Below, piece after piece: positions 23,962 to 62,231 of a DNA stretch of 64,000 nt (positions are counted from its first letter, which is position 1; each line of letters begins with the position of its first letter). The stretch spans positions 3,844,001-3,908,000 of the forward strand of contig CM035354.1 in NCBI GenBank assembly GCA_020137815.1. Reading direction: 5' to 3'. The notes under the pieces are model-generated. The model was not told where the DNA came from, made no database searches, and was given only the letters and a program-made list of their open reading frames with translations. Position numbers and translations under genes: made by a program. This DNA comes from Hormiphora californensis. Taxonomy: Eukaryota > Animalia > Ctenophora.

Positions 23962-24632
23962 TAAAACAGCGATAATTTCGACGGGTATTGGATGGCTCTT
24001 TTGAAGCAAAATTAAGTCAACACTAAAGCTCTTTCCAGCCTTTAAAACGCTAAAACGACTGAAACTCGAAAGAAAAAAGACAAAAAACTAAAAAGACTAA
24101 AAAGAAGAAGATTGAGATCTGGCCTGGATTTGCAAATATTTGATTAGCGCGAGCGCGCGGGAGGGCTGCAGCGCTTTCGCTTGGCTTGCGCTGCCATGCC
24201 GGCTCCGGGTGCGCGTGTTGGGGTTGAGTTATCGTTTTTTTAAAAACTCCGTCCCCAAAATCTTTCCATTTTTCAGTTGTTGTGTTTGACTTTTGAGCAT
24301 GCACTGTACCGCATTGGTTGCAGCCCCTAGGTGCTTGCGTTTTTGACGACCTGGTACGGGGGACTGCAGCGTAGGCCAATGCCTTGTCGGGGTGTGTTTT
24401 CGACAAAAATCTCCGAAATTAACGCCACTAGTGGTGCCTAGTAAAGATTTGTCCTCTCCCCGTGTGGACACCAATCACAGCACAGATGACAGAACTTGTG
24501 TCTAGCACGTAGCAAGCGATAAAACGTGCAAATAAATACATGGGGCCTTCAGAATGTCCATTGCAGAGCCGAGGGCCGTTTAAAATTGAATTTGAAACTG
24601 CATGCCATCGAATTAACAACTTACACCTTTGC
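23962..24632. promoter_or_regulatory. Probable bidirectional promoter between head-to-head DNAH3 and HACD
   Basis: About 690 bp between divergent ATGs; CpG-rich core at about 24145-24230; CCAAT motifs on both strands. Confidence 0.5.
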
Positions 24633-24636
24633 AGCC

Positions 24637-25447
24637 ATGTTGTCTAAGGTTTACCTACTCTTGTACAACTGTTGCCTCGCCTGCGGATGGAGCATTGTCC
24701 TTTACCAGGCAATCCTGGAGCTGGCGACCGCCCAAAATCCAACCTACGTCTATGAAAGATGCCAAGTAGCCCTCAAAATCTCCCAAACTCTAGCCCTACT
24801 TGAGATTTTCCATGCGGTTGTCGGTCTTGTGCGATCTTCCCCCTTTACTACGTTCGTCCAGGTATGTAAGATTTATGTACAGGGTTTAAAATCTGCAGAG
24901 TATAATGATTATTTGTGTAATTATGGTTCCCATTGGTGTAGATATTGTTTGGTTTTGCTGATTTTCCCATTTGTTACAATTATAAACCCCCTTCTTCTGC
25001 CTCTCAGGTCCAGTCACGTCTAGTTGTCCTATGGCTCGTCCTTGACCCAGTCTCTGAGGTACATGGTTACAGTAATGTGCCTATGATGATCATAGCGTGG
25101 TGTGTGGCTGAGATAGTTCGATACTGGTACTATGCCCTGTCCCTGGTGGACAAGGTACCATACTTCCTAACCTGGTGCCGGTACTCCTTCTTCACCTTCC
25201 TATATCCCATTGGAGTGTCGGGTGAGCTCCTGACTATCTTAGTATCCTACCCATGGTTACTGCTACCGGAATGTTCTCTTTGGCCCTCCCCAACAAGTGG
25301 AATTTCTCATTCAACTATCCTATCTTCCTGATGATCTATATGATGGGATATGTTCCGTACCTGCCCAAGCTTTATATGCATATGTTGAAGCAACGATCTA
25401 AGATGTTGGGTAAAGCTGCTGTGGAAGGAGAGAAGAAATCCAACTAA
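24637..25447 (+). CDS. HACD: Very-long-chain 3-hydroxyacyl-CoA dehydratase (HACD1/2, PTPLA family); exons 24637-24861 and 25008-25447; 1-nt frameshift at about 25247
   Basis: YLLLYN..GW, QTLALLEIFHAVVGLVRS..QVQSRL, IAW..AEIVRY.YY, WCRYSFFTFLYPIGVSGE, LPN.WNFSF.Y, YMHMLKQRSK, C-terminal KKSN (KKxx ER signal). Confidence 0.9.
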
Positions 25448-33207: not shown

Positions 33208-33419
33208 CACTTGTTTCGACCTCTCTGTGTAGGACGTATGCTTATTTACTATCAATTATCGTTTACGAAAGTATAATGCCAGAAAATACGCCAATTTTAA
33301 CGGCTAAAATAAAAATCAGTAGCGAGGCCGCCCGATAATAAATCGGCAATATTCTGGATATTTCAGTTTGACCACCTTTTAAATATGTTACAGGTCATGT
33401 AAAAAGTAGCGAAACAGAG

Positions 33420-36400
33420 ATGATGTTGTTTATTTTGTTCATCTCGACTTTCCTAGATCCCTCGAGCGGCCTCCTCTTCGAACCTGAACCCAATGAAAAA
33501 CTCTCGGACTTTTCTCTGGAGAATGGTCAGCTATACGTGTCCTCCCCCAAACGGACGATGATCCTGGACAACTCATTTTCCGTCCTCAGCGAGCACCGTA
33601 AAAACTATTCATCTGTAGTGCTGCTCTACACGCACCAAAATGCGGTGTTAGAGTGTGGGGAGAGGATCGTTGATTCACAGGGTCCATGCTGCTACCTATT
33701 CCACCCTGACAACCTGACCACTCCAATTGCACAAAACAGCTCCTCGAGAATGTGCGATACCATCTTCAAATCGCTGTACAACTTTTATGCATCTTACAGG
33801 ATTACTACTGATAATCAGGGGAAGATTGATAAAAGGTTCACAGTTTACCATTCATTTTTCACAAATCATGGCGTGGGTGAGCCCAATGAGATGTTTTACA
33901 CGAATATCTTCAATGAAGCAGCCGACCCCGATACACGACTGCTGTTCACTAACGTCAAGTTTGATGGGCTGAGAATCCTCGGTGCCAGGCCACTCTTCAT
34001 CAGTCCCTCTCAGTATGCGTCTAGCAAGTTTCTGGTGTATTTGAAAAGTAAAAACGAAAAAATCGCCTATGCAATTGATCCAAATTATGCGAAATCAAAA
34101 GAACGGGTTCCGATTCAACTTTTATGCAATGGCCAAGAAAAAAAGTTCCTGAATGGTACAGGAGTTGATCTTACAGATGCAGATAGAACCTCGGATTCGT
34201 TCGGTACAGGATTTACCCATTTCATATTTTGTAAATACAGCAGTGATATCTACATCTGCCCCTACCCAGAAGAGGGAATTACTGCAGCCATCGATTCGGC
34301 CAATAATCAAGGAAGTAGGACTGGATCTCTTGACTCGACCAGCATCTATTCATCAGCTTTACTTGATGAGTACTCGATTATGAAAGGAATGATAGTAAAT
34401 GGAGCCCTGATGCTGTTTTATACCTCTCAGAAGACAATTCACAAGGTAAAGTACTTCATTGTGATAGCTGTAAAGTACAATTGTTTTTTGCCTAATAATA
34501 TTCTCGTAATTTGAATATATAAAATCCATTCCAGCTGTTTGTTCAAGATAAAACAATGAAGATTGACAGCTTCCAATTCACAGCTAAATCTCGCATCACG
34601 AATCTTGAATTTAGTAACGAAAACTTGGGATATGCTCTCACCGAAGACTCTGTAAGTTATGACATCTGTAGCAGGCGGTCTGCTACGTTTCACTGCCACA
34701 CACTTATTATATTACTTCTGTAGAAACAGTGGTCAAGTGACTCCAGTTTAAAAAGTGTGAGATCAAATAGCATGACAATCCAGGTTGAAAGAATTTATCA
34801 TTCTTCAGGAGCTTCAGATTATAATCCTGAACTCCCCTTTTTTGTAGGTCGAGAGTTTCCTGCTCCACAATTGTGCCAGTGTTAGTACCTGTGATGAATG
34901 CCATGGCCTCAACGACCCGCACTGTGGCTGGTGTACTCTGGAAAGCAAGTGAGTGGACAATATGACGGTCACCTCGCCACAATCATCATAGTTTGTTTAA
35001 AATTATGAATCAGTACAATAATATTTTGAGAAATCTAATCATTTTCCTCCAGGTGCTCGGACAAGTCAAATTGTACGATCCATCCTGAGTATTGGTACCA
35101 GGATTCCAATAAGTGTCTCGACATTACCTTACAGCCATCTGATCTTGATGTTATCGCTCATAGTCAGGTGAGTGATAGAAAGAAGGAGAGAGTGAGAAAT
35201 AAGGAGAGATAGTGAGAGATGGAAAGATAGAGAGATAGAGGGATGGAGACAATAATGTATCGAGACAGATAGAGAGTTGTAAGATATTGAGAGTTGAACT
35301 GCAGCCGGTAGACACGATATCAATCTACTCATGCAGCAGCTTCAGAGCACGCAGAGCATTCGGCAATGCGTTCTTATTTCGAAAAGAGAAAGAGAGAAAG
35401 ATATAGAAAAAGAGAGAGAGAGAGATTAGAGAGAGAAAACAATATAGGAAGTTAGTGTGAGTGGACTTGAAGCCTAAAGATGGAGAAAAATAGATAGAGA
35501 ATAGAGATACACGGAGAGATATTGATCAGTTTAGCCTGACAAAAGAGCTCTTTGTCTCTGTCTAGACAATAGCAAGTTTACCCTACTGCTTTCTTCCGTC
35601 TCATTCTTTTCTCTCCCATTTTCCATATATCGCCCGACACTTTTTCTAGTCGCACTCTGAATGATGTGTGTGTGTGGTTGGTGTAATTCGATATAGGGAC
35701 GAGATAGTCGATAAACAAAGTGTGGGAGTGCAAGTAAGATGAGAATCTCAGAGAGAGAAAAAGAGGGCAACCAAGTGAGAGAAGTGAGTTATGGTGGAGA
35801 GATAGAAGGAGAGAAAAATAAAAATGAGATTTCAGGGGAAAGTGAGGGGAGAGAAGGAGAGGGAGAACTTCTTGATCGAAAAAGAGATCAATTTGTCAGG
35901 ATTCAAAGAGTGTTTCAGGAAAGTCAGAGAAAGAGAGTGAGAGTGGGAGAGAGAGATAGAGTGGATGAGAGAGAGAGAGAGAGAGAGAGACAGTGAAGGA
36001 GAGAGAGAGAGAGAGTGGATAAGAGACATGGAGAGAGACAGTGAAGGAGAGAGAGAAAGTGGATGAAAGATAGAAGCACAATTTTAACAGATAACATACA
36101 CCTATCATCACACGTCACACAGCACCTTCTCTCTCTCAATATGCCCCTCTGGTAGAGCTGTACCCAAGTACTGCTGCAGTACTACACACGGCCCGATCAA
36201 ATATCAATCAGCGTTCTTTACTGCAGGTCTATACTATAAGATTCTTACTTTTTCTCCCCTCTATCTCTCTCCTGTGCTCTCTTATTTATTTCAAATCAAA
36301 TATCTCTCCCTCCCTCCCTCCCTCCCTCTATCTCTCTCAATAGCAATCTATCTCTCTCTCAATCTCAAATCTTTGAATATGGTATTACGCCGTAACCAGT

Positions 36401-42282: not shown

Positions 42283-45200
42283 GATAGAGAAAGATGGATA
42301 GATAGAGAGAGACGTTTAACTTTGTGTATGGCGGCAATTTAGCATGCTGTTGGTTCGACCACCCTCCTCCAAATTTGCAAGGTGTTGTGGTCAAATATTA
42401 TAGTGACAGCAAGAAGTGTTATCAGCTGTAGACAAATAATATATCATCATTCAGTCATCACATAATATTATGTGTAAAATGTGAGAAACGAACAAACAAA
42501 TTGTCTCTCTATCTCCCTCGATCTCCTTCTTTCTCTCTCTCCTCACATGACAGTTACCCTCTCTTTTCAACTTCCCATTTTTTCCCTAAAAGTTTCTAAC
42601 CAGTGGTTAGGAACAAATCCTTGAATTTATTCCCAACTGACCCATAACGACTCCTTGTTTTCAGGTGTGGTGCGTGCAGCTCAGTAACAAGATATTGTAC
42701 TTGGTGCCCGCTAGAGGGCTCATGTAACAACCACCAACTTGCTCCCTGCCATGAGTACAAAGTCACGGTAAGTTTGGGTTCTTTTGCGGGAATATTGCAG
42801 ATAGGTTGCGGCAATGCGGGAATATTGCAGAGAATGAGCTCGTCCCGAGAGCGAAACCACTGTGTTGCTTTTCTTTGAGAATTGTTTAGAAAGAGATCCT
42901 TAGATGGGTGAGAATAGTACAACTTTGCTTTCCATTTTACTGTTCTGTTGCTACACCCAATTACAACACACGTCATATAAAACACTAGGTCCTATACAAG
43001 GTTTCCCCTTTTTTCTACTATTTACATTACGTAACGTACAACTAAAGTCGGTCCAGTGATTTAGTTCTACATGACAGCCATGAGTAACAACTAGACAATG
43101 TTTGTCTCGGAATATATTATAAAAGTCTCGTAATATTTTACGCCCTTCCGAAATACAAAATAGAAATCTTTTGTTCTACTCAAAATGTTATTATCAAATC
43201 TCTGCAATAAGCATTTTTTAGAAATCCGAAATTCGCTCAGAGAAAAGAAAATATTTCAGTGGAGATTATGCATTGTCTAATATCAATAATCATCTCTGTT
43301 CTTGACCACACTCTTCCACCTCAGGATTCTGCCCAATGTCCGAGTGATAACACTACCCTCCTCTCCCCCAGGACTCCGCCCAATGTCCCAGTGTTAACAC
43401 TACCCCCTCTCTCCCTCAGGATTCCGCCCAATGTCCCAGTGTTACTTCGATTGAACCCAGTAAGATACCGCGGGATACAATTGACAATGAAGTGGTTGTG
43501 ACTGTGAAGAATCTTCAAGCTGTCACGGTGAGTGGTATATCGAGTTTTACTACTCCTAATTTTGGAGATGAACATTGAACAAGATTTCTGATGATAATTT
43601 TATGGGGTCCAGTCATGGATTCGAGAGTTCAGGGTGGGTGGGTAAAATTTTAGAAATATGTTATAAACATGTTATAAAGGGGCGGTACAAAAAAAACATG
43701 TAATTTGTGGTAGGCAGCCGTATTACTACGACAGAAAGGTGCACTATTAGAATACATGTGTGTGACAGCAGCAGTTCTTTTCTCTCTGTTACAGCTAGCT
43801 AGCAGCCCCCTCTCCATGCAGTAGTAGTAGTGGGACAGTGCGGTGTGTGAAGAACCCGTGAATTAGCAATTCTGCACACGGGAAACAGAGTTTTTGAATT
43901 GAAGAAAAGGACAGGAGAGAAGGAGAATAAGGATAGAGCAGAAAAAGAGGGACCGTTGTGTGGTAAGACTGAGAGGACAAGAAGAGTAGAAAAAGGGCAA
44001 TTCAAGACAGAATAAGGAGCAGGAGAGTTGTGATTAAAGTGGGGGGGGGCTGGTATATGAACAAGGAAGCGCCTAACTAATTACCACCCTGTACTTCCCA
44101 GGTTTCTGGCGTGTTTCAGTGTAAATTGAGCAGCAGGAAAAACCGAACTCTCAGTCGAAAATACGAAATATCCCCGGAGTCCACGAATACGACGATACGT
44201 TGTAAAGATGTCCAGGTTCGTAGGGGGCATGGCGGCATGAACTCAATAGGATTTTGTGTAAACCTAGTGGGTGGGGGAGCACATTTTTTATGTCCCCCCT
44301 CTTTCTCTCCGTCATACTTCCTCCTGCCCACTCCTCCATGGAGTGTGTGTCGGAGTGTGACATTTCCAGAGAAAGAGAGAGAGATGATGAAATGTTGACA
44401 TTTGGGGGGAGAGAGAGGGGATCGACAATCAATATTGCTACGGTTTCACGTCTTGCTCGATAGACGAGACTTCTCCCCCTGACTTGACGTAACGCGCGGC
44501 GACATTCAACTGCAACTTCTCTTGCTTTCCGCGTCACAGGGCGCGCGCCAGGTTTCACACACTGCAGCAGCTCCAAGCGTGTGTGAGGGTCTGTTTACAC
44601 TCAAGTTCCTTATTAATCCAGGTGTCTCACATTCTAACTATATTTAACAGGTGGACGATTCATTCCCGGAGTACTACGGAGGGGAGGCTGAGTTGGAGCT
44701 GAGTGTGGTGTACAAGGCTGGCTCTGATGGCCAGGGTGTGGATGTAGGGAGTGGGAAAAGTAAGTTTGTTTGTTTTAGAAGAAGAGAGAGAAGGTAGGAA
44801 AAAGTGAGCTGAGAGGGCGAGATGAGTGCTGGACACCAACGCCCTTTATTTCTCTCTCTCCCTCTCTCCCCCTTCCCTCTCTCTCTTACACACTGCTTAG
44901 TGTGAATGAGTACTATTACGCCCCTTATCCAATGTTGCTTTCCCATCTCACCTACAGCTCCCCACCCATATTTACCTTTCTTACACAACATAGATTCAAC
45001 CCTCCCGACTCCCAAATAATAATCTCACCGCCTAGCCTCTACCCCATCTCTCCCCTTGATCCCCTCTCCCCTGGATCTCACCCCTCTCCCCTGAATCTCA
45101 CCCCTCTCCCCTGGATCTCACCCCTCTCTCCCCCGCAGTTAATGTGTACGGCTGTGAGATGCTGGCAAGTGACTGTGTTACCTGTCTCTCCTCCTACTCT

Positions 45201-48200
45201 ATTGCCGCCTACAGCTGCCGATTCTGCGGGGACAAGTGTCGATACAAGAACCACGGAGAGTGTGAGGGTGGAAATGTTATCAGTGGAAACTCAACTGTGT
45301 GCCTGGAGAAGAATACTAAAATTGAAAAGGTTAAATCCCCCTCTGTTCAGCTAATGTACTTCGTTAAATCCCCCCTCCTCTGGTTTCTGAACGTGCCTTG
45401 TTCGTGTGAAGAATATAAACAACTCAGAACACAACCATATTCAGCATTTGGTTCAGTGTTTAGTGCGTAACTGGACGCTTTATAGTGATTATACCGCCCT
45501 CACCTTCTGGGCAACATTCCTCAGCACATTCCATGTGACATTCTCACGGAACACGGGCCGACAAATGTATCTATCTCCCCCTATTCTATCTCTCTTCTAT
45601 CTCTCTCCCCCTCTCTGTATATTTCTCTCCCTCTTCTATCTCTCTCGCTCTTCTATCTCTCTCTTCTATCTCTCTCTCTCTCCCTCTTCTTCCTCTCTCC
45701 CTCTATTTTTCTCTCCCTTTCTCTCTTAACTCCTCAGTTAACCCCTCCTCCCCCTCCTCCACGCAATTAACCCTCCTCTTACTCAATTAACCTCCCACAT
45801 CCCAGGTGTTACCCTCGTGGAGTCCCGGTGAGGGCGGGGTAGAAATAACCCTCTTTGGAAAGAGTCTCTCGGTGAATGGGCTGACCGTACAGGTTGAATT
45901 CCTGTTCGAGGATTCCAAATCTAAGTCTGTGGAAACCATTGCCTGTCAAGATACAACTTACACCAACTCAACTAGGTACAGCCCTATTTTCCAACCCCGA
46001 TATAGGGAATCAACAACCTTGTTTACGAAATAACCCCTCGCACACTGGCAAGGAAGGGGTAACTTCGTTACCAATAGTTGACCCCGGCCCGATATACTGG
46101 GCATACCGATTTCTGTAACACTACTCTCTTCTGTAGGGTAACGTGCAAGACGCCCAGTATTATGGAGGCTCATTCCTTCAAAGAGATGCACAGAGAGGTA
46201 ACGGCTAACATGAGCCTGAGGTACATCGGGGGAACAACAGCTCGACATGTGTCTAACTACCAGTTCCACTTTACGGTAGGTCCTGTACTAGATCTCTATC
46301 TATCTATCTACGGAGTGCCTGGGCTTGCCAACGGCAAGCCCACAGGGGACTATCGCAAAGCGATATCGCCGGCACTAGGAGAATAGCCCCCCTCCCCTCC
46401 CCCACCATCAGGAACTGCCCACAGGACAGGTTCGCATTATAGGTGGCTTCGGGTTGGGGAGACTAAACTCCTTCGAGAGTCGCAGAATCTTGATTCTTCT
46501 TCCCTATTAGTCTTGGAACTTTGGCTCAATCTCCCTGCGACAGGTGGTTCTTGAGTTTATTTGCTTTCTCGATTAGCTTGATGGCTACCGTGGTGTGATA
46601 TATTATCGTTTTGCCTAGATCTTTGTACGAAGTTTTGCCGCTGAGTCTCATTCTCTCCGTTTCTAGGATTTCACATTCACAGATTAGGTGTTTCGCATTT
46701 TCTTTTGTTTTAGAGCATAGACTACATATGTCTGTATTCGATTTTCCAATCTTCTTGAGGTAGTAGTTGAACGGCCCTATATTTGTGATGAGATGTAGTA
46801 TGGTTCTATACTTTTTCCTTTGGTTTGCGTACAGTGTCATTTTTTTTGATAGTGAGTTCCATGTTGATTCATTCGTTACTATGGTTCTTGTGTGTTTCCC
46901 TCCATTTATTAGAAATTGGTTCATGGTTTTTGTTTTGGCTATTTTCGCCGTAGAATTTTTAATATAGCTGTGTGGGATTGGTATTTGTCTGGTTTCACTG
47001 ATTGATTTGCTGCATCCTTCTTTGGCGAGTTGGTCAGCTATCTCATTACCTTGGATGCCGATATGTGCTTTGACCCATTTTATTTTCACCGTATTGTTTT
47101 GTGCTAGTTGGTTGAGTTCCGCGTTGCATTCCTTAATTGTTAAGGAGTCGGAGGTCAGTTTACTTAGTGCACTTATGCTGGCGGCTGAATCTGATCTGAT
47201 GTGGATGTGGTGATTTCGTGTCCCATTGTTGTTTAGTTCCTCTGCTGCTCTTTTAATTGCTGTTACTTCGGCTTGGAAGACTGTGCTATAATTTGGTAAT
47301 CTTTCTGAGATATCGATTTCTTGTGTAAGCACTGTGGATTTTGAGTGTGCTCCTAGCCCCGTTTGGTTAGCTTCGTTTTTCGATCCATCCGTGTATACTG
47401 TTAGTGCATTTCTGTCCTCCTCATCTAGTGTACCTGTTTCCCAGTCTATTGTTGTCTCGTAGTTTTTCATAAGGGTTTCTTTGGTTGTTTTGTCTAGTGG
47501 GCGTACTGGTAGCTCTAGTTCTTCCCACAACCTGTTGCATGTATGAGCATGGGTATAGTTGGTTAACATACCTTTTTCTTTAGTCCATTTCCCATTTGCT
47601 TTTAGGCGCCCAGTGGTTTCAGTAGCTGTTTTCTCTACGTGGTGTATTATGTCTGTAGTGTTCGTTATGATGTTTAGGTCAGCCCCTGCAGTGTTAGGGA
47701 AGGCACCGGTTGCTATTCTGAGAGCTAACCTTTGCACCGCTCTCAGTTTCTTGGCATTATGTTGTTTATAAATCGCATTTATCCATATTGGTGCTGCGTA
47801 CGTTATGAGGGGTCTGATGGTTTGTCTGTAGAGCCATATCGCTACTTTGGGGGATAGTCCCCATGTAGGTCCGATGGCGATGTTGGCTCTCATCAGGTTC
47901 CTTTTGGCTTTTTTTGTGATGTTATCAATGTGTTTGTTGAAGTTTAGTCTGTTGTCTATCGTAACTCCAAGGAATTTTGTTGTGGTGCTTAGTTTTATTT
48001 CTGTACCTTCAATGAAGATTGGTTTAAGTGCCCATTTCCTTTTTGTGGTAAACATTATCATAGTAGTTTTTATTGCGCTGAGCGAAAGGCCTTGGTCTTT
48101 ACACCAGTTGTTTATGTGGTTGAGAGTTGTTTGTGTTCTGTGTCTTATTATCTCTATATCGTCTCCTTCGGCCAGTGATATGAGGTCATCTGCAAATGCT

Positions 48201-51200
48201 TGTAGGTATGCTGGTGTGTCTTTGGCTGTGCTTTGTAGTAGGCTATCTAATACAATATTCCATATTAGCGGCGAGAGAATCCCTCCTTGAGCTACGCCTC
48301 TCTTTATTTGGAAGGTAATGTTCTCATTTTTATGTTCAACGTATAGTGACCTTGTTGTTGTCATATCCATTATCCAGTTTATTGTCTTTGTGTTTATCCC
48401 TTTGTTTATGAGGCCCCGTTGGATTGCTTCGAATGATATCTTGTCGAAGGCACCCTCGACATCTAGGAATACACCTAATGCAAACTGTTTCCTTTTCATC
48501 CTTTTTTCAATCTTGTGAACGATTTTGTGTAATGCGGCTTCTGTGGAGTTAGATTTTCTGAACCCGAATTGTTTATCGTTAAGCTGTGAGTCTATCTTGT
48601 TTTTTTCCAGGTTCCAGTATATTAGTCTTTCTTGTATCTTAAGGATGATTGGAGCGAGTGTGATGGTGCGGTACGCCTTTGGGTTGTTGTAATCGTCTTT
48701 TCCTGGTTTCGGTAAGAATATACCCTTGCTAGTCTTCCAGTTATTCGGTGTTTGGCCGATGTCGTACGAACATTGAAATAGTTTCAGTAACGGTTCTGCC
48801 ACGGTGTCTATGGCGTTTTGTAGCATGTTGGCTGTAATTTTGTCTGGGCCTGGGGCTTTGTTTGGTTTCATTGAGTTGATTGCATCTTTGACTTCCGTTA
48901 GTTCAAATTTTAAGGTATCTCTTTCTTCCGCTGTTTGGATTTGGCTTATATTGTCGATTGTTGTCGAACCAAAGTGTCTGTCTCTCATTATTTCAAGGGT
49001 TTCTTTTGCGTTTGTTGTGATTGAGTCGTCAGCCCTATATATACAGTCCAGGTTCCTGCTTGAGTTATCTCTGTTCTTGCATATTTTATTAAGTCTAGAT
49101 ATGGCTGGGGTATTTGCTATATTTTCCGTGAACTTCTCCCATGCTTCTTTCTTGTGTGTTCTTTGTAGTCTGTTAAGAATGTTGTTCGCATTTTGTAATT
49201 CTTGTTGTGTCTGTAGTGTTTTGTTTTTTCTGTGTTTTTTCAGTTTTTTCTTCGTTTTATTTATTTGCGCCCTTATTTCTTTGTTGTACCAGGGTGGTGG
49301 TTTGATCTTGTTTGTACTATATGTGTATTCTGTTGTTAGGTCCCATGCCTTTTTGATTTTCTCGTTTATGACTTCAGATGCTCTGTCCATTTCAGACTTA
49401 TTGGTTGGTGGATTGTTTATTATTGTTTCCAGATCTTTGTCCTCGGCTAGGATTTGCTTGAATTTCGGCCAGTCCGTGTTTTTGTCTGTTTTTGTTTTCT
49501 GGAACTTGTTTGTCATGACTTTTAGTTTAGCCCTTAAGTACTTGTGATCTGAGTTTGTAAATTCTTGACTGACCGTCCAGTTGCAGATTAGCTCTCTTCC
49601 TTGTTCGTTGGTTATCGTGAGGTCAATAATTGATTTTTGAAGTCTTGAATTTTCGAAGGTGGCCTTGTTGCCTGTGTTCATGAGAGATAGGTTATTGTTT
49701 GCTAGCGAGATTTGTATCTCATCCCCTCTTTTGTCAGTTTTCTTATCTCCCCAAATGGTGCTGTGTGCGTTGGTGTCGCTGTTGATTATTAATGATGCAT
49801 GTTGTTTTTTGGCATATTTTGCCAGTTTGTGTATGATGTTTATATATTGTAGGGTGTCTTCGTCACCATCCATGTAAATTGCTGCAAGTATAATTTTTTG
49901 TTGTCTCCTGTTTATCTGTATGGCTATGCTGTCTCTGGTTGTAAATTCGTGCAAGGTGATGGCCTTGGAGGAGTGGTTCTTGTGTAACGCTATAGCTACC
50001 CTTGGGTTGTGTTCTGTTGTTTCTGGTTTTATTATTGCTATATCTTTGTGGATATTGGGTATTTTTTTGTTCTTGTCGCAGTAAGGTTCGCATATAAAGA
50101 TGATGGGGGCGTGGTTGTTGATTATGTTTGCTGAAAGTGTTGTTAGTGCAGCTTTCTTGTGCTGTTGGTTCGTGTATATCATGGAGATTGGTACTAGATG
50201 GTCATCGGTTTTTTCTTTTGCTTCTTCCTCGGTTCTTGCGTGGTTTATTTGCGTTGTGAAGATTGGAGAGGTAGCGTTTGTTCTATTTATTCTTTTGTTT
50301 AGTTTCATTTCAGCCGTCGACGTTGCAATCGGCTGGGATCTAGTGTTATTGGTTGAGATGTCTTTTGTTGATTTGAAGTAGTTTGTGATTAAGTTATTTT
50401 TAGTCGTTTGTTTTGGTAAGTGTGGTTTTGTCATTTGGTTGGTGTTGCTTGTTGCGGTCATGGTTTTGCCCTTTTTGGCCTTGTTGCTGGTTCGTTTCGA
50501 GTCTGGTGTTTGCCTTTTTTTCGTGGTTGGAACTGTTGGGCTATTTGTCATTACTTTTCTGCATTTGGCCCTACATGTAAAGTTGTCGTTGCGTGTTCTT
50601 TTTCTCTTAATGGGGCTAGAGGAGATAAGATGGGAGTTGTTCGAGGAAACTTTGCCGGAAGGCTTGTTCGTGGCTCTTATGCCTGTTCGTTGCGCTGTGT
50701 CATGGTCGTTGATCTTGGGTATCGTTGCTTGGTTGTCGATAAGGTTATCGTGTAATTGGGTCAAATTAGGAATCGGTGATGATTGCTTAGTCGTGGCACT
50801 TGGGCCAATACGAGGCTCGAGGGCCTTTACGTTGCTCTTTGGCATTATAGGTGATCGAGGCTCTTGGGCCTTTACGAGGCACGTAGGCCTATTAGTTGCG
50901 CTTGGGCAATTGTACTTACCGATCCTTGGTGGTTGTTGTCTACATTGCTAGTCTGCAGGGTGAGAGGTTAATTAGTGTCAGAATGGTGAATAGAAGGAGT
51001 TTCGCATCATGTAACCACGCGCTTGGAACTGATGTCTGGTGGGCTAGCGGACGTTTCTCAGAGCAAGATGACATACGCTGCAGCTACCTCTTCGTATTGA
51101 GGCGCGCGGCGAGGGGATTGCAGCGCATTCGAAAACAAAAGGGAAAATGTACAAACAGAATTTATTTGTTTTTTTATTTTATGCTCGCCCTGGGGTGCAG

Positions 51201-54200
51201 TGAAGCTTCGCGCGCCGCTAGTCAGTTTGCTCGCGCGGTTGTGTTTTAGCGCGTGACAGGGACGGCAGTCTTGCTTTCCGGAGATATTTCCCGTGGTAAA
51301 AGTCTGATTTTTGAAGATGTCACCCCCTGGGTGACGCGCGATGTTTTATTTGCGCGTCGTAAACATTTATGCTAGTTTTTTGGCTCTCCCACCTTAGTTT
51401 CTTGACCACGCGTGGGAGGGGAGGAGACAACTTCAAAAAAATCCGACTTTAGGCTATTAAGAGTCGTTTGTTAGGTTTGGAGTTAGAAAATTTAAAGTTT
51501 AAAATTTAAATGGATATTAAAAAGAATAGTTCATCGATTACAGTTCAACACAATGGCCAAAGGATTGTCTGTTGGTCAAGGGGGTGTTAGTCATCCATGG
51601 GATGGCTGATGTCCAACACGGATACCCCCTTGACCAACATTCCACTAGCATCTTTGAGTTGGAACGGTTTGAGTCCAGGGTCCTTGGTCTTGGGGCTTGA
51701 GGTTCCAGTCTGTCCCTGTGGTGAGGATGTGTTGTTAGGGGATGGTTTGGGAGAAAACCAGATTTTCTCAGACGTGTGAAATGTTATTTGGGTAAAGTGA
51801 CTGGTTCTCAGCCAATCGGTAAGTAATATTTCCTGGTTCGGTCGGTTGCTAATTACATAAGTCTAGTTATAGTACCTGCTTCTTGTCCTTGTTCTTGTTC
51901 CTCTTATCCTTTTCTTGTCTGAGTTGGTTCTGTGCTTCTTGTAGTGCTGCTTGTTGTTGCTGGAGTTGCTCCGCCTGTTGCTGCATCAATAGTTGCTGCT
52001 GTGTGATGAATTCTTGCTGCTCCATCTGTTGTCGGGCCAGAGTTTGTATCTCCTGTTGTTGTGCTAACAGAGCCTGTAGGTGGAGTTGTTAGCCTTGCTG
52101 TAGGAGGGGTTAGTTGGGTGGGGTGTGGAGATGGGGGTGGAGGTTATGGGGGGGGGGGGGATGATGGTGTGTATTGTTGAGTTGTACCTGGTTTGTGTTG
52201 GCGTTCTGGTCTAGCATCTGTTGGTTAGCTTGGTCATTCTGGTCCATACGTTCATCCGCTGGTTCATTGTTACCGGGTACTATTCCATTACCTGGTACTA
52301 CTCCGTGTCCGGGTACAGCTCCATGTCCAGGTACAGCTCCGTTTCCTGGTGTCATTCCGTTGACTCCAGCAACATTTCGGTTTCGGTTCTGTATGGGGGG
52401 AGGGGTTGTTAGTAGGGATTGTTATACTTCATCTTCATAATTTGATAGTTAGAGGGGGGAGTGGTAATTTGTTTACCAGTCTTATATAAGTTAGGGGGTG
52501 GGGGTTGGTAGTGGATTTGTACTGAATTCGGTAGTTTTGAAGGAAGGGATTATGGGAGGAGGGGAGGTGTATTTCACTTGCCTGTCTTATGTAGGGAGGT
52601 GGGGGCCTAGCTGTTCCCTCTCGTCTTCTTACATTGACTATTCTGAAACCAGGAACTGGTACGATCAAATCTTGCGCTATATCTCCCATTACATAGAGTA
52701 GATGATGGCCCTTTACACTGAGTTGGACTGGAGGTCTGGTCAGAATTGCAGGTTCTAACCACCCGAGAATCCTGGACATTGTCTCCCTCGATTGTAAATG
52801 ATTAAATGTATCAACGACCCGTAGCGAGTGGGTATGGAGGTCATCCTCTTCACATACGTATTGAGCAGGTACACCTGGAATGTTATCTGCAGTCAACATC
52901 AGCGATCTGCCTCGGTAGTCCCGGTTCGTTAACAAGGGAATGTTTTGTTGCAGGAGGAAAGTCTCCAGATCCTTAAAATCCGCGTCTTCAAGCGCCAGCA
53001 TCTCGGTACTATAAATCCTAAGTTGGCGGCCTCTCGGGGCACGCATTATCTTCTGTTGTGGGGTCAGTCTCCTTGCCATGGTTGCTACATGAGAGAATAT
53101 TGGTTATTTGCTGCTGTCGATAGGGGTGTGAGGGTGGTGGGTTGGGTGTAGAGGGGGTGAGAAGGGAGGGGCGGCGTAATTACAAGTGGTATTTGGATAA
53201 TAAGGGACGAGGGGAAGGGGATACTGATATTACACTACTACAGTTGTGTTGGAATGGGGGCAGTAGAGAGCAATATTATTAACAATGTCAGATTTTGAGG
53301 GAGGGAGGCTAAGGGTGATGCGTTGCAATTATACTATCAAGAGCTTAGGATATTGACAATTGAGACTTGAGATGATGGGGAGAGAGGTAAGACTGGTGTC
53401 ATCTAATTAGCGGCAGTCGAGAATTGAGATATTATTATACTACAGCATTTAGGAGTTGTGAGGCTACAATATTGCTAACAACATTAGTGAAATGCGATAG
53501 TTGTAGAGGAATACTGTTGCTGCAGTGACTATAGTGGTATGCTATAGAGGAACAACTGTACTACTGTCAACAGGCAATGAAAGAGGAGGTCAGGGAAGAG
53601 CGGCGTAACTGCAGGCTACGTTTGAGAAATGAGGTGATGAGAGAGAGAAAGAGATTGCGCGCGCGCTGTTTGTTGGTTAGTGGAGTTGTGTATCTGTTGT
53701 AGTCGGCGCAGCTGTCGGTACTCGCGCGTTACGTCTTTGGTTTGGGTCTGTATAGAGTGCGGGGTAAAGGTCGGTTGGAAGAAGGAGAAGGGGGGGTTGT
53801 TGTAAGTGTGTAGATCGTGGTGTCGACGGCGAGCCGTTATCGTCGGTAATACCGAAGGTCGGATAGGTCCGAAGGTTGGGGGGTGAAGAAGATTGGTTGG
53901 CTCTCAGTCAAGACTGAGAGCCTTAAGCCACTGCGCCGCGGCAAGGCTCTTCTTCGTGCAGTGGTCCTGTACTAGATAATCAATAGTTGTGATTGAAAAA
54001 TTCGTTTCCAGTTTCCATTAAAAATAGTTTCGTACAACGAGCTTGGAGTCAGTTCAGTCGCGGCTGCACTTCTTGTGTATTCCATTACCACCATGGACGA
54101 TTTAGTATTCCCCAATGTAACACCGCCCTCCCCCTTCCAGCCACTAGATATCGATGAAGTGTTCCCTGATCAAGGGCCCGTTTCTGGGGGCACCAGGATC

Positions 54201-57200
54201 AAGGTGAATGGAACACGGCTCTGTGTCCACGAACAAACCGGAGTTACAATCAACGGGAAAACGTGCACCAACGTCACGTGAGTAAACCAGATCAGGAGAA
54301 TTTAAATTGAGAGAGTGAAACTGTTAGCTGCAGCTTTTTACTCCTACCCAGTATCCATGGTAACCCCCATGGTAACCCCCATGGTATCCCCCATGGCTAA
54401 CCCCATGGTAACCTCATGGTAACCAAAAGCTATGTTAACACCCCCATTGTTCAGGTGTAACACCGCTACTCAGGAGCTGCACTGCACAACCCCAGCTAAC
54501 CCGATGGGAACACCCCGACAACCAATTGCAGTCTCCCTGGGAGGGGCTACAGTGGAGAAGGATGTCTTCCAGTACGGAGCAGATCCAGTTGTTACTAAGG
54601 TCACACCCAACTGTACTCTTGCACAAGGTAAGTAGTTCAAAACAACCCTTTACTACTACTTCGAAACTGATACCATCGCGCTTTAAAACTATATTTTATC
54701 TCCTCCCCAAGTAAAGTGGAACGAATTTAACACATCCCCCCTCTCTCACTAAAGAAACATCCCTCCCCTCTCCCAGGTGGAACCAATATCACGGTAACGG
54801 GCAAGGATTTCTACCGTATCCAGAATCCCAGACTGGTCCTAACAGATGAAACATGCTCTGATCCTGGGATTGTGATGGTTCCTGCAATGGTTAAATCAAA
54901 TGAACGGTTGATATTCACCATCCCCCAAGACACGACCCGCACCAAACTAGGATTCAAAATGGACAATGTGAGTTTGGCAGCAAGTCAGAGGGGGAGGGGG
55001 TGCAGGAATCGTCTGTGAATACCATGTATTTTACTGTTTATTGATATTCATTTCTCCATTCCAATGCCTTGTTTTAGGTTGAGTCAGTGTGTGAGACAAA
55101 CAAACTATGGGCCTTAGAAGTTCTCCCACGACCGACTGTGATCACCTCTGCCTTTATGGACGGCACCAACAAGTCCATGAGATGCTTTATTGGGGAGAAT
55201 TGCACCATCTCTGTTCAGATGACACAAATACACAGGTAAAGTGATCCAGTTACCATGGTTACCGTCAGTTTGATGCCGTTACCATGGTTACCGTGTTAAC
55301 CGTGGATTTTGGGTGTTTCAGGGAATTGGACTTGCTCCAAAAAATGTGAAACCCAAGTTGTGTGAACAGAATCTGTCAGCACAAGTTTTTCACTTTCACA
55401 ACGTCCTGTGTAACCCTACCCTTTCTCTCCACAGGCTGCCAGATCAAGTGACGGTTCTGATAGGTAGCTCAGCTCTCTGTGCCAACATGTCCATTACACA
55501 GATGCAGACTGACCCTGCGGAGGGGATCTTGTACGCTTTCGGACAACTCAAGTGTTCCTCTCCATCTCTTGATAAAGTGAAAGGTATATTGATCGTTGTC
55601 TAGCCCCCCCCTCCCCCTCCCCCCGATCACCGGAACCCCGACTTACCGGGCGAATAAATTTGGCCCCAATTTGGGCAAATCGGGGTTCAACTGTATGCAT
55701 GTTATCATCCAATCATTCATCCTCAATATTCCAGGTAGTGTATATCAGCTAGGAGGCCGGACTAAGAGGGCCCTGTTGGGGGACCAGGAGACGGACAAGT
55801 TCTCTGTGGTGGTCCAGATAGGACACTATGAGGAGGAGCTGGGTACCATCGTGTTCGTAGAACGGGGCTTCAAGTGGATCTACGCGTACATTGCTGCAGG
55901 TATTGTAATTGTTCAGCAGTATTTTCCAATCTCTTCTTCGTATAGTATCCTTCATTCCCCCATCCCTCCCCCTAGAGGTTCTTAACTCCAACGGTCCAAC
56001 ACCAACACATTACAACACATTTCTACCTATTCGACACCCCCTCCCTTCTACAGGTGCTATTGGTATGGTGTTGATGGTGTTTATGCTGGTGATCGTAGTG
56101 AAAACAAGGAACGAGCAACACAAGAGGAGCCTTCTTCAGCAGAACCATGAGAAAGAACTAACAGCCATTGAAGTGCGATGGCAGGGAGAGGCAAAGAAAC
56201 GTAATTAGACTCAGTCATAAAAGCGAAACTCGCCATGAAACTTTCTTCTTTAATATCCAGTATATCCCCTATTTTCACCACGAATTAACTCTCCCTTTGA
56301 ATGAATTACTAGTGATTAGAATTCCTCACTTACTTTTTACTTTCCCTTGTTAAGTACCTAATCCACCCCTAACTCCCCATCCCTAACTCCCCACCCCCTC
56401 CCCACACAGAGTTTGTTATGAACATGATAGACCGAGATGAGGGATTAGAAAGTTTCAAAGTGGATCCTCGAGATATCCCATTCAGAGTGTTTAGAGACTA
56501 CCTAATCCACTGTATCTTCCCAAGTGTTGATACACGGAAAATACTCAATAACTTACAGGTAAGTTGACTAATTTTATGCTCTCATTTCTTCCCTGTTCTG
56601 AGCACAAAATTGAGTTTATTTTTCTTTTATTTTTCCTTTATTTATAGTAAGGGAATTAAGGGCCGTGAATGGGAAAAAATTCGCAACAAGCTAATTCCTT
56701 CACCAATGTGTCCCTAAGGGTCTCCACTAAGCCCCCAGAAAAGTGTAACACGCTGCCGGGTGTGCAACATGGTCATTTCCGGGTAGGCGTGGTACCTGTA
56801 TTTTCAGCCTGTAGCCAAAAACATAAATCCTCTTAGAATAGGAGTAGAGACAAAATCAAGGACACTAAAATGTTCAGCGTCCTCGCATTAGTGGGGGTAG
56901 GTGCTGGAATTAAGTCTCTATCTCATCTGGTTAATTAGATAATTGGATAATTAGGTTTGCGCATAACCGTTTTTTGGCTGTATGGCTATAGCCACTTAGG
57001 AATGGTTTAGAGATTTTTCATACATGCCATTTTGTTCAGAAAAAAATTTTAAACTAAGAATTGTGTAAAAATTTAGGGCCTATCTCGTACCGTTTTGGCG
57101 TTATTTGCGGTCAAAGTAGGCCAATTAACTCATTATTGGGCATTTTCGGCTGATTTGGCCTACTTTGACAGCTAATAACGCCAAAACGGTAAGAGATAGG

Positions 57201-58306
57201 CCCTTAATTTTTGCACAACTCTTAGTTTAAAATTTTTTTCTGAACAAAATGGCATGTATGAAAAGTCTCTAAACCATTCCTAAGTGGCTATAGCCATACA
57301 GCCAAAAAACGGTTATGCGCAAACCTAATTATCCAATTATCTAATTAACCAGATGAGATAGAGACTTAATTCCAGCACCTACCCCCACTAATGCGAGGAC
57401 GCTGAACATTTTAGTGTCCTTGATTTCGTCTCTACTCCTTTTCTAAAGGTATTTACGTTTTTAGTCTTAGCCTCAAAACACAGGTACCACGCCTACCCGG
57501 AAATGACCATGTTGCACCCCCGGCAGAGTGGTACACTTTTCTGGGGGCTTAGTGGAGACCCTTAGAGACACATTGGTGAAGGAATTAGCTTGTTGCGAAT
57601 TTTTTCCCAATCAGGGCCGAAATCTGCCTATAATTCCCTTACTATTACCCCAGTAAATGGCGATAGTTCAAGATGTTAATCCCTTTCTATTTCCTCAGCT
57701 CGAGCACACAGAATATCCAGATGAGCAACTGGGCCGGTTCAAACAGTTTTTGAACGATGAGCATTTCGTTCAGACATTCATCTCTGTGATAGAAGCTCAA
57801 CGTGATTTCCTGGTACGTTGAACAATATCCTAGTTACAACTTTAGTTACCTTGTCAGACACTGACTGTACAGTGTACACCGCACAACCTCGGCCCGGTGC
57901 GAAGTGGACGGTCTTATATGATACAATAGTTACCATGGTTACTATAATTCTAGTTACCTTGGTAACCATGACAATTCCGTAGGTGCCCCAGCGGTGTGAC
58001 GTGGCTAGTTACCTAACGATAGCACTCTACAGTGATTTCAATTACCTCTCCAGAATCCTCTTCCTCCTACTCGACAAGTAAGGGATCTTTTTTGATATTT
58101 TGATATTTTCCTTCTGGGAACGGTCGGTAATTTTCTATGAGTGAATTTATGTGAATCATTCTTGAATTGTATATGAATCAAACATTTAATCCCTCATTAT
58201 TTCCCAGAGTGATTGATACGGATATCCAGAAGAATGCCAAGCTACTGCTGAGACAAACTAAATCTGTTGCGGAGAAACTCCTTACTAACTGGCTCTCTCT
58301 CGCACT
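33420..58306 (+). CDS. Plexin (signal peptide, divergent Sema, 3 PSI, IPT/TIG repeats, TM, start of RasGAP domain); about 23 exons, 3' end beyond the window
   Basis: PSI motifs CDECHGLNDPHCGWC (34847-34949), CGACS..CTWCP (42665-42767), CVTCL..CRFC (45138-45329); IPT P..GP.SGGT.I.V.G..L; TM WIYAYIAA|GAIGMVLMVFMLVIVV; cytoplasmic PFRVFRDY..CIFP, F..TFI.VIE.Q.DF, VASYLTIAL, KLLLRQTKSVAEKLLTNWLS. Confidence 0.9.
46526..50845 (-). CDS. LINE ORF2: AP endonuclease, reverse transcriptase, RNase H, CCHC finger (1439 aa, uninterrupted)
   Basis: CEPY, SDTNAHS, IIDLT, SDHKY; KAPGPD, YRTITL, QFGFR, FLDVEGAFD, GVAQGGILSP, AFADD, KFLGV; YTDGS, STVFQAE, SDS, WVKAH.GI.GNE.AD; CSLC..E..KHLICEC. Confidence 0.97.
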   Translation of the reverse strand: MPKSNVKALEPRIGPSATTKQSSPIPNLTQLHDNLIDNQATIPKINDHDTAQRTGIRATNKPSGKVSSNNSHLISSSPIKRKRTRNDNFTCRAKCRKVMTNSPTVPTTKKRQTPDSKRTSNKAKKGKTMTATSNTNQMTKPHLPKQTTKNNLITNYFKSTKDISTNNTRSQPIATSTAEMKLNKRINRTNATSPIFTTQINHARTEEEAKEKTDDHLVPISMIYTNQQHKKAALTTLSANIINNHAPIIFICEPYCDKNKKIPNIHKDIAIIKPETTEHNPRVAIALHKNHSSKAITLHEFTTRDSIAIQINRRQQKIILAAIYMDGDEDTLQYINIIHKLAKYAKKQHASLIINSDTNAHSTIWGDKKTDKRGDEIQISLANNNLSLMNTGNKATFENSRLQKSIIDLTITNEQGRELICNWTVSQEFTNSDHKYLRAKLKVMTNKFQKTKTDKNTDWPKFKQILAEDKDLETIINNPPTNKSEMDRASEVINEKIKKAWDLTTEYTYSTNKIKPPPWYNKEIRAQINKTKKKLKKHRKNKTLQTQQELQNANNILNRLQRTHKKEAWEKFTENIANTPAISRLNKICKNRDNSSRNLDCIYRADDSITTNAKETLEIMRDRHFGSTTIDNISQIQTAEERDTLKFELTEVKDAINSMKPNKAPGPDKITANMLQNAIDTVAEPLLKLFQCSYDIGQTPNNWKTSKGIFLPKPGKDDYNNPKAYRTITLAPIILKIQERLIYWNLEKNKIDSQLNDKQFGFRKSNSTEAALHKIVHKIEKRMKRKQFALGVFLDVEGAFDKISFEAIQRGLINKGINTKTINWIMDMTTTRSLYVEHKNENITFQIKRGVAQGGILSPLIWNIVLDSLLQSTAKDTPAYLQAFADDLISLAEGDDIEIIRHRTQTTLNHINNWCKDQGLSLSAIKTTMIMFTTKRKWALKPIFIEGTEIKLSTTTKFLGVTIDNRLNFNKHIDNITKKAKRNLMRANIAIGPTWGLSPKVAIWLYRQTIRPLITYAAPIWINAIYKQHNAKKLRAVQRLALRIATGAFPNTAGADLNIITNTTDIIHHVEKTATETTGRLKANGKWTKEKGMLTNYTHAHTCNRLWEELELPVRPLDKTTKETLMKNYETTIDWETGTLDEEDRNALTVYTDGSKNEANQTGLGAHSKSTVLTQEIDISERLPNYSTVFQAEVTAIKRAAEELNNNGTRNHHIHIRSDSAASISALSKLTSDSLTIKECNAELNQLAQNNTVKIKWVKAHIGIQGNEIADQLAKEGCSKSISETRQIPIPHSYIKNSTAKIAKTKTMNQFLINGGKHTRTIVTNESTWNSLSKKMTLYANQRKKYRTILHLITNIGPFNYYLKKIGKSNTDICSLCSKTKENAKHLICECEILETERMRLSGKTSYKDLGKTIIYHTTVAIKLIEKANKLKNHLSQGD
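51587..53079 (-). CDS. Putative spliced LINE ORF1 (341 aa): exons 53079-52582, 52388-52188, 52073-51876, 51715-51587
   Basis: Three phase-0 introns with CTAAC branch points and C-rich tracts ending in CAG; donors CAG|GCAAGT (or in-frame GT at 52476), CAG|GTACAA, CAG|GTACTA; exon lengths 498, 201, 198 and 129 nt join into one open frame. Confidence 0.7.
53885..53964 (-). ncRNA. HDV-like self-cleaving ribozyme fold at the 5' end of the LINE
   Basis: P1 CCACUGC/GCAGUGG; P2 GAAGAAGA/UCUUCUUC; P3 GCC/GGC; L3 UUGCCGC; single G-C P1.1 pair; P4 GGCUCUCAGUC/GACUGAGAGCC; J4/2 C-C-A-A. Confidence 0.8.
56645..57644. mobile_element. 1.0-kb palindromic non-autonomous element, Academ-like
   Basis: TAGTAAGGGAATTA..TAATTCCCTTACTA termini; ~480-bp arms; 3-bp TSD TTA. 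Confidence 0.8.
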
Positions 58307-61227: not shown

Positions 61228-62231
61228 TAGTAGGGACGAATCTCTTATAAAAAGAAGTGGCTGACTCACTATTTGGTGGAAAGCAAATTCCGGTTGTAAC
61301 CCACCTATTTTGACCCGCTGAACACGATCCCGTTCATAGGTAAGGTCGCAAAAGTGAAGAACATGCCCAAATCGGCCACGCCCTTTTACCTGTATTTTCA
61401 GCCTGTAGCCAAAAACATAAATCTTCTTAGAATAGGAGTAGAGACAAATCTGAGGGCACTAAAGTGATCAGCGCCCTCGCATTAGTGGGGGTAGGTGCTG
61501 GAATTAAGTCTCTATCTCATCTGGTTAATTAGATAATTGGATAATTAGGTTTGCGCATAACCGTTTTTTGGCTATATGGCTATAGCCACTTAGGAATGGT
61601 TTAGAGACTTTTCACTGGCGCCATTTTGTAGGCAATAGCCAAGTTATGGGGGGTCGACGTCGGACTTTTAAGCTCTATCTCCAACCGTTTAGCCGTTATT
61701 GGGCTAAATCGATGCTCAAAATGAGCGAAAAACGGTAAAAAGCCCGTTTTTGAGCATCGTTTAAGCCAAATAACGGCTAAACGGTTGAAGATAGAGCTTA
61801 AAAGTCCGACGTCGACCCCCCATAACTTGGCTATTGCCTACAAAATGGCGCCGGTGAAAAGTCTCTAAACCATTCCTTAGTGGCTATAGCCATATAGCCA
61901 AAAAACGGTTATGCGCAAACCTAATTATCCAATTATCTAATTAACTAGATGAGATAGAGACTTAATTCCAGCACCTACCCCCACTAATGCGAGGGCGCTG
62001 ATCACTTTAGTGCCCTCAGATTTGTCTCTACTCCTATTCTAAGAGGATTTATGTTTTTGGCTACAGGCTGAAAATACAGGTAAAAGGGCGTGGCCGGTTT
62101 GGGCATGTTCTTCACTTTTGCGACCTTACCTATGAACGGGATCGTGTTCAGCGGGTCAAAATAGGTGGGTTACAACCGGAATTTGCTTTCCACCAAATAG
62201 TGAGTCAAAAAATTAAGATTCGTCCCTACTA
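61228..62231. mobile_element. 1.0-kb palindromic non-autonomous element, Academ-like, related to 56645-57644
   Basis: TAGTAGGGACGAATCT..AGATTCGTCCCTACTA termini; 3-bp TSD TAT; shares an ~230-bp arm block with the first element. Confidence 0.8.

Follow-up and report, generated by a model that had tools for sequence, protein, structure and literature searches.

A predicted HDV-like ribozyme located at the 5′ end of an intron-containing LINE in the comb jelly Hormiphora californensis

The element and its genomic surroundings

We analysed a stretch of 64,000 nt from contig CM035354.1 of Hormiphora californensis, here called the window, in which positions are counted from its first letter. Its minus strand contains a 7.67-kb APE-RT-RNase H LINE at 53964–46295, with all the features of an APE-type non-LTR retrotransposon (APE, RT, RNase H, target duplication and 3′ tail). 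Its motifs suggest that the element may belong to the LOA clade. ORF2 (46526–50845, minus strand) is intact and consists, according to domain matches, of an N-terminal extension, the APE endonuclease, RT, RNase H and a C-terminal zinc knuckle. The 3′ UTR (46295–46525, minus strand) contains hairpins and no AATAAA and ends in (TAGA)4; seven contigs of run X5 leave the element at 46295. Among the 120 ORF2 matches listed, all relatives that carry a name were from Mnemiopsis leidyi. In a quick tree built from 80 of the 121 RT rows, the element fell in a 58-row clade together with Mnemiopsis copies. Part of ORF2 (49217–50003) is covered with one difference by a 787-nt contig of the second seawater RNA-Seq run, X8. 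The N-terminus of ORF2 is otherwise unconserved and has a short LITNYF motif at about 50400–50370. At this site 11 of 121 relatives match a pattern like a PIP box, and the window protein matches it only loosely.

Contig depth was several hundredfold higher at the 3′ end of the element (46150–46677), reaching about 278,000 in X5 as compared with about 650 at the 5′ end. This is likely due to a very high-copy SINE or to truncated copies with a common 3′ end. The spacer between ORF1 and ORF2 (51166–51693) is also common to a high-copy repeat, with an X5 depth of over 100,000 at 51435 and no second copy in the window.

The copy lies antisense within an intron of a plus-strand plexin-like gene with TIG/IPT-domain exons (about 42600–56600), just behind a splice donor; the target duplication begins three bases into this intron. 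Insertion into a coding exon was rejected from the position of the site behind the plus-strand donor. Because the gene is antisense to the copy, it cannot supply a sense transcript. The first-pass annotation had proposed that the element cuts itself out of read-through transcripts, which is not established for the copy studied here, given the antisense gene around it.

Elsewhere the window contains an axonemal dynein heavy chain gene (DNAH7-like, about 3500–23600, minus strand) with apparent nested plus-strand genes (e.g. 6646–7275), a PTPLA/HACD-like exon (24523–25023, plus strand) and a single open frame of 380 aa with no Pfam match (33372–34514, plus strand). Large near-perfect inverted repeats, foldback or MITE-like, were found at 274–2467, 19673–20981, 56661–57618 and 61262–62207, the last two being mutually related.

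ORF1 introns and a foreign 5′ piece

ORF1 lies on the minus strand and has three introns, which were predicted from the sequence before RNA contigs were examined. All three are G-poor, lie in phase 0 and contain branch-point-like motifs. Exon 1 (52582–53079; 166 aa, ATG at 53079) is supported by prediction and homologues, and is followed by intron 1 (52389–52581; GC-AG, 193 nt), a Gly/Pro/Asn-rich exon 2 (52188–52388; 67 aa), intron 2 (52074–52187; GT-AG, 114 nt), a Gln-rich exon 3, coiled-coil-like by eye (51876–52073; 66 aa), the predicted intron 3 (51716–51875; GT-AG, 160 nt) and a predicted exon 4 with the stop codon (51587–51715). Since the joined ORF1 reaches 341 aa only after phase-0 splicing, splicing is needed for the full protein. 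Six matches to exon 1 included four credible homologues, two of them from Pleurobrachia bachei (56% and 33%). ORF1 had no match in a word-based search, Pfam or Atlas, and its AlphaFold model was unusable (pLDDT 40). Among the 40 differences listed of a total of 496, 27 fall in predicted coding parts; ORF1 exons account for 14 of these, eight of them synonymous.

Record 24 of X9, a seawater RNA-Seq run whose RNA status is the tool's guess, is a contig of 728 nt that is 99% identical to the window (5 differences). It skips introns 1 and 2 exactly as predicted, with joints at 52388/52582 and 52072/52187, supports exons 2 and 3, and stops at 51916. The introns presupposed by the first-pass annotation are thus real as far as introns 1 and 2 are concerned. 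Introns 1 and 3 are present in DNA contigs, namely record 13 of X5 and record 5 of X2, and no spliced joint was listed in the DNA runs X5 and X2, where the filtering of Logan contigs can cause DNA joints to be missed.

The element between the ribozyme fold described below and ORF1 (53085–53884, minus strand) is a G-poor region, a predicted outron, that ends in an acceptor AG at 53086–53085. Record 27 of X9 matches 52932–53086 without difference and then continues into 11 letters that do not belong to the element, joined at this acceptor 5 nt before the ORF1 ATG. At least the final nine letters of the foreign piece occur nowhere on the minus strand of the window. A cis-intron beginning at a donor-like site at 53852 was rejected as the source of the piece because the letters differ. 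Splicing of ORF1 and the foreign piece are each seen in one contig of the single run X9.

The foreign piece ends in TTTGAG. According to PMC8527503, ctenophore leaders have AATTTGAG as a mostly conserved end, and spliced leaders were present on 56% of the Iso-Seq reads of one ctenophore species. Compared with one published ctenophore leader given there, the piece matches at 7 of 13 letters, the last six being contiguous. A text search of the literature for leader-like letters returned only unrelated-looking titles, and the accessible parts of PMC7986045, PMC4664967, PMC11184263 and PMC10879173 contained no matching leader or rule. We lean towards regarding the foreign piece as a spliced leader. 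It is best read as a variant ctenophore leader, the rival being a distant host exon. In that alternative the ribozyme is real and the piece comes from a normal exon of the host, joined by cis-splicing to a copy in sense orientation within a host intron, so that the splicing of ORF1 would be incidental host processing and no leader-based strategy. We regard this as unlikely: it agrees with a foreign piece of just 11 letters in one contig, whose letters before the last six depart from the published leader, whereas the TTTGAG end as in ctenophore leaders, the closeness of the acceptor to the ATG and the requirement of phase-0 splicing for the full ORF1 argue against it.

The spacer between ORF1 and ORF2 contains three AATAAA motifs (51350, 51178 and 51166) and a U-rich tract, which together form a predicted 3′ end of the ORF1 mRNA (51140–51350, minus strand). 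These are followed, at 50990–50870, by a predicted branch point, an acceptor (AG ending at 50953), a 33-nt mini-exon and a 50-nt intron (50919–50870). The acceptor at 50953 is predicted to be strong, and the ORF2 ATG at 50845, which comes after the predicted 50-nt intron, aligns with the start of the relative P0006. Judged from its sequence alone, the spacer looks like an operon spacer. The RNA contigs reached neither the ORF2 acceptor nor the ribozyme, such gaps in cover being no evidence either way.

The ribozyme fold and the 5′ end

The first 80 nt of the element (53964–53885, minus strand; 53964 is nt 1) show the complete set of pairings that make up an HDV-like nested double pseudoknot, with P1, P2, P3 and P4 in the right order. 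P1 (nt 1–7/31–37) has seven Watson-Crick pairs, the first of which is C1-G37. P2 (nt 10–17/73–80) has eight pairs and P3 (nt 18–20/28–30) has three G-C pairs, while J1/2 is 2 nt long, or 3 nt if the end of P2 opens. L3 (nt 21–27, 7 nt) carries U21 at its first and G26 at its sixth position, and P1.1 is formed by G23-C38 in reversed orientation, with U22·U39 as a possible addition. P4 (nt 43–53/56–66) has 10–11 pairs; since 11 pairs would leave a loop of 2 nt, 10 pairs with a 4-nt loop are more realistic. In J4/2, the catalytic C69 (window position 53896) is followed by C-A-A, which fits the C-N-R-A pattern. Watson-Crick pairing holds throughout the 28–29 helix pairs, and none of the catalytic positions is disrupted. 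The predicted cut lies between 53965 and 53964.

A general descriptor, drawn up with the candidate already known and open to any pair at P1.1, had a single match on the two strands of the window, namely 53964–53885. In 400 block-shuffled windows there were 11 loose matches in total, none of which had the geometry of the ribozyme, and shuffling the 80 nt 20,000 times produced no match. The complete nested double pseudoknot claimed by the first-pass annotation for the first 80 nt is therefore borne out by the pairings and the shuffles. Plain folding of the 80 nt gave a z-score of −4.1, mainly owing to P4 and P2. The minimum-energy fold contains a competing 5-bp helix between L3 and the 3′ strand of P1 (−34.1 kcal/mol versus −31.0 kcal/mol for P1+P3+P4) in a nested model that cannot score pseudoknots.

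A covariance-model search against HDV-like families, which had been suggested along with the original claim, did not lend support: Rfam gave no HDV-type match even at E 10 and only chance hairpins, with models that cannot score the pseudoknot. The ribozyme falls in no curated Rfam subfamily. Among 76 related loci, which mostly lack their 5′ ends, no credible ribozyme was found upstream of ORF2; the strict descriptor gave one antisense, chance-like match, a relaxed version gave four poor matches, and Rfam gave none on 20 of the 76. A metagenome scan with a single protein as query found no relative, a 21-nt pattern of the ribozyme core had no match in viral contigs, and the 64-kb window contains no second copy of the ribozyme or the element.

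The two ends of the element share a repeat of at most 15 bp (53977–53963 and 46293–46279), which reaches into the first two bases of P1, so that the 5′ boundary is ambiguous by 2 nt from the window alone. In public contigs of other copies, two each from X1, X4 (the sample of X1) and X6 (the other sample), the element gives way to different flanks immediately behind 53964. The breakpoint was seen in three of four runs, from two samples, and no contig of the fourth run, X7, aligned at the 5′ end; the longest 5′ contig of run X2 likewise ends at 53964. Because the contigs of other copies break at 53964, C1 and C2 are encoded by the element, a 15-bp duplication is rejected, and the target-site duplication is 13 bp (53965–53977 at the 5′ end and 46281–46293 at the 3′ end, minus strand) with a 2-nt microhomology to nt 1–2. 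The earlier statement that P1 begins exactly at the duplication boundary thus holds by the breakpoint of the other copies, but not by the repeat of the window alone. The common breakpoint indicates that the predicted scissile bond is the true 5′ end of the element. Anatomy, chance controls and the 5′ ends of the other copies all support the proposal that an HDV-like ribozyme fixes the 5′ end of the LINE, cleavage itself being predicted.

G at +1 is the usual, though not universal, norm in HDV-like ribozymes, and C-G is the normal P1.1 pair in R2-type ribozymes. The first-pass annotation had flagged two atypical positions of the element, C1-G37 in place of G at +1 and the G-C pair in P1.1. Both are present, but they are no real obstacle in view of precedents in the active L1Tc ribozyme or from mutagenesis, and by this analogy they are probably harmless. 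The L1Tc ribozyme of Trypanosoma cruzi (L1TcRz) is active and cuts at C1 (PMC3185411), and the +47 primer of that paper implies, by our derivation, G37 and U38 and hence a P1.1 other than C-G. The bases of P1.1 are reported to differ among active HDV-like ribozymes (PMC4035085). Compensatory swaps rescue the T1/P1.1 pair in CPEB3 and HDV, and the CPEB3 ribozyme has a U-U second pair (PMC9901934), which resembles the possible U22·U39 of the comb-jelly ribozyme. The importance of the G at the sixth position of L3 has been reported (PMC3774820). For L1Tc it has been described that a G at −1 may lengthen P1 while weakening P1.1 (PMC3185411). With C38, such a G could have the same effect here; position −1 of the copy in the window is A. 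By analogy with Agam-2, in which a J1/2 of 0 nt is described as dead, one of 1 nt as nearly dead and one of 3 nt as working (PMC4908430), the 2-nt J1/2 would count against activity, since it lies between the nearly dead and the working linker.

The short J1/2, the competing helix and the lack of an Rfam match would also be expected if the fold were a slow or dead relic, with the 5′ end set by an internal promoter starting at nt 1 and the RNA capped. The absence of a sense host gene around the copy and the report that the first 77 nt of L1Tc double as a promoter (PMC3383444) point in the same direction. We consider such a relic improbable, because all 28–29 pairs are Watson-Crick, the catalytic positions are intact and one exact 5′ base is common to the copies. 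In addition, promoter and ribozyme coexist in L1Tc, so that a promoter would not exclude cleavage.

Proposed expression, known systems and other copies

We consider it likely that the first 80 bases are an HDV-like ribozyme cutting at the 5′ end, that unspliced full-length RNA is the template for copying, and that spliced messages make the proteins. The primary transcript would start upstream of nt 1, in the flank or at a nearby promoter, and cut itself in a Mg2+-dependent manner via C69. By analogy with the family (PMC3185411), cleavage would leave a 5′-OH RNA that always carries the ribozyme. Part of the cut RNA would stay unspliced and be reverse-transcribed at a new target. Another part would be processed at the acceptors, where the 880-nt 5′ region including the ribozyme would be replaced by a leader exon, likely capped, before ORF1. 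A separate ORF2 message would be made via the predicted AATAAA and acceptor between the ORFs. Since a copy with a target duplication and a tail still holds its introns, unspliced RNA must have been copied. It is very improbable that the spliced contig arose by chimeric assembly or from a processed DNA copy, with introns unused in vivo, despite the guessed RNA status of X9 and the DNA joints that filtered Logan contigs can miss, because the two joints coincide exactly with the GC-AG and GT-AG sites that had been predicted in advance and a processed DNA copy would itself have needed splicing.

The missing cap would be the simplest candidate for how a fraction of the RNA escapes splicing. The first-pass annotation suggested that RNA lacking a cap may keep its introns in this way, and the idea is plausible because the cap-binding complex helps the splicing of first introns. 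Since element RNA is spliced in X9 and has an apparent foreign 5′ piece, the question of the cap concerns the template fraction only. A fuller reading, which we put forward tentatively and with some doubt, is that this ctenophore LINE is a trans-spliced two-gene operon. The ribozyme would make an uncapped, intron-retaining genomic RNA, and the spliced-leader machinery of the host would discard the outron, cap the ORF1 and ORF2 messages separately and splice the four-exon ORF1.

L1TcRz of L1Tc/NARTc is similar in being a compact HDV-like fold of about 80 nt at nt +1 of an APE-type LINE (PMC3185411, PMC3383444, PMC4035085), with C1 at the cleavage site and the same helix numbering. The host lineage of L1Tc has spliced leaders, as the host of the present element likely does. 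However, L1Tc RNA is described as unspliced and leaderless with a proposed IRES (PMC3383444), whereas ORF1 of the present element has introns that are spliced out and a foreign 5′ piece at its acceptor. The ribozymes of R2, R4/Dong and Baggins likewise lie at the 5′ junction and have the U and G of L3 and the catalytic C (PMC3774820); the present element differs from them in its G-C rather than C-G P1.1, its varied flanks rather than rDNA and its two ORFs with introns. Penelope-like elements also keep introns through retrotransposition and carry self-cleaving ribozymes, but they are described as having a GIY-YIG endonuclease, hammerheads and pseudo-LTRs (PMC8557442), in contrast to an APE-RT-RNase H LINE with a target duplication and a tail. 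Cer1 of C. elegans resembles our proposal in that one element yields both a genomic RNA that stays unspliced and an mRNA that is spliced and bears SL1 (PMC3315495). Cer1 is an LTR element with a promoter-defined 5′ end, its spliced product is an accessory protein, and the accessible text of that paper mentions no ribozyme.

In open-access literature listings we found no prior APE-type LINE combining a ribozyme with introns or a spliced leader. By itself, the ribozyme adds one more member to a known class; new, as far as these listings show, is its pairing with a spliced ORF1 and a likely leader. Translation of uncapped LINE RNA has so far been explained by proposed IRES-like structures (PMC3383444). 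The present element suggests another route, in which a leader is spliced onto the message and the ribozyme-cut RNA is kept only for copying. The carriage of introns through an RNA intermediate has been called highly unusual and ascribed to Penelope-like elements in PMC8557442; here, it is an APE-type LINE that has kept spliceosomal introns while passing through an RNA stage. The element offers three introns and a single catalytic base to mutate, which makes the question whether an uncapped 5′ end protects introns directly testable.

Other copies were seen in the public contigs. In run X1, a core contig had a depth of 87.6 and three flank contigs had depths of 25.2, 28.2 and 30.7. These values agree with the presence of three full-length copies, depth not being copy number. 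The contigs of other copies had no listed difference inside the 80 nt, as against three substitution and three indel sites in 53560–53884, numbers too small for significance. Over 59 letters, record 20 of X6 (aligned to 53901–53959) has 10 differences; it is a diverged sister 5′ end in which the 5′ strand of P1 (7 nt) is identical and J1/2 is longer by 18 nt. Run X6 had no cover over 53978–54034, from which the insertion may be absent from sample S2, lack of cover being no proof. In two contigs of X4 the match to the 5′ part breaks off at 53813, where they leave the element; they may come from a derivative reduced to the ribozyme-bearing 150 nt.
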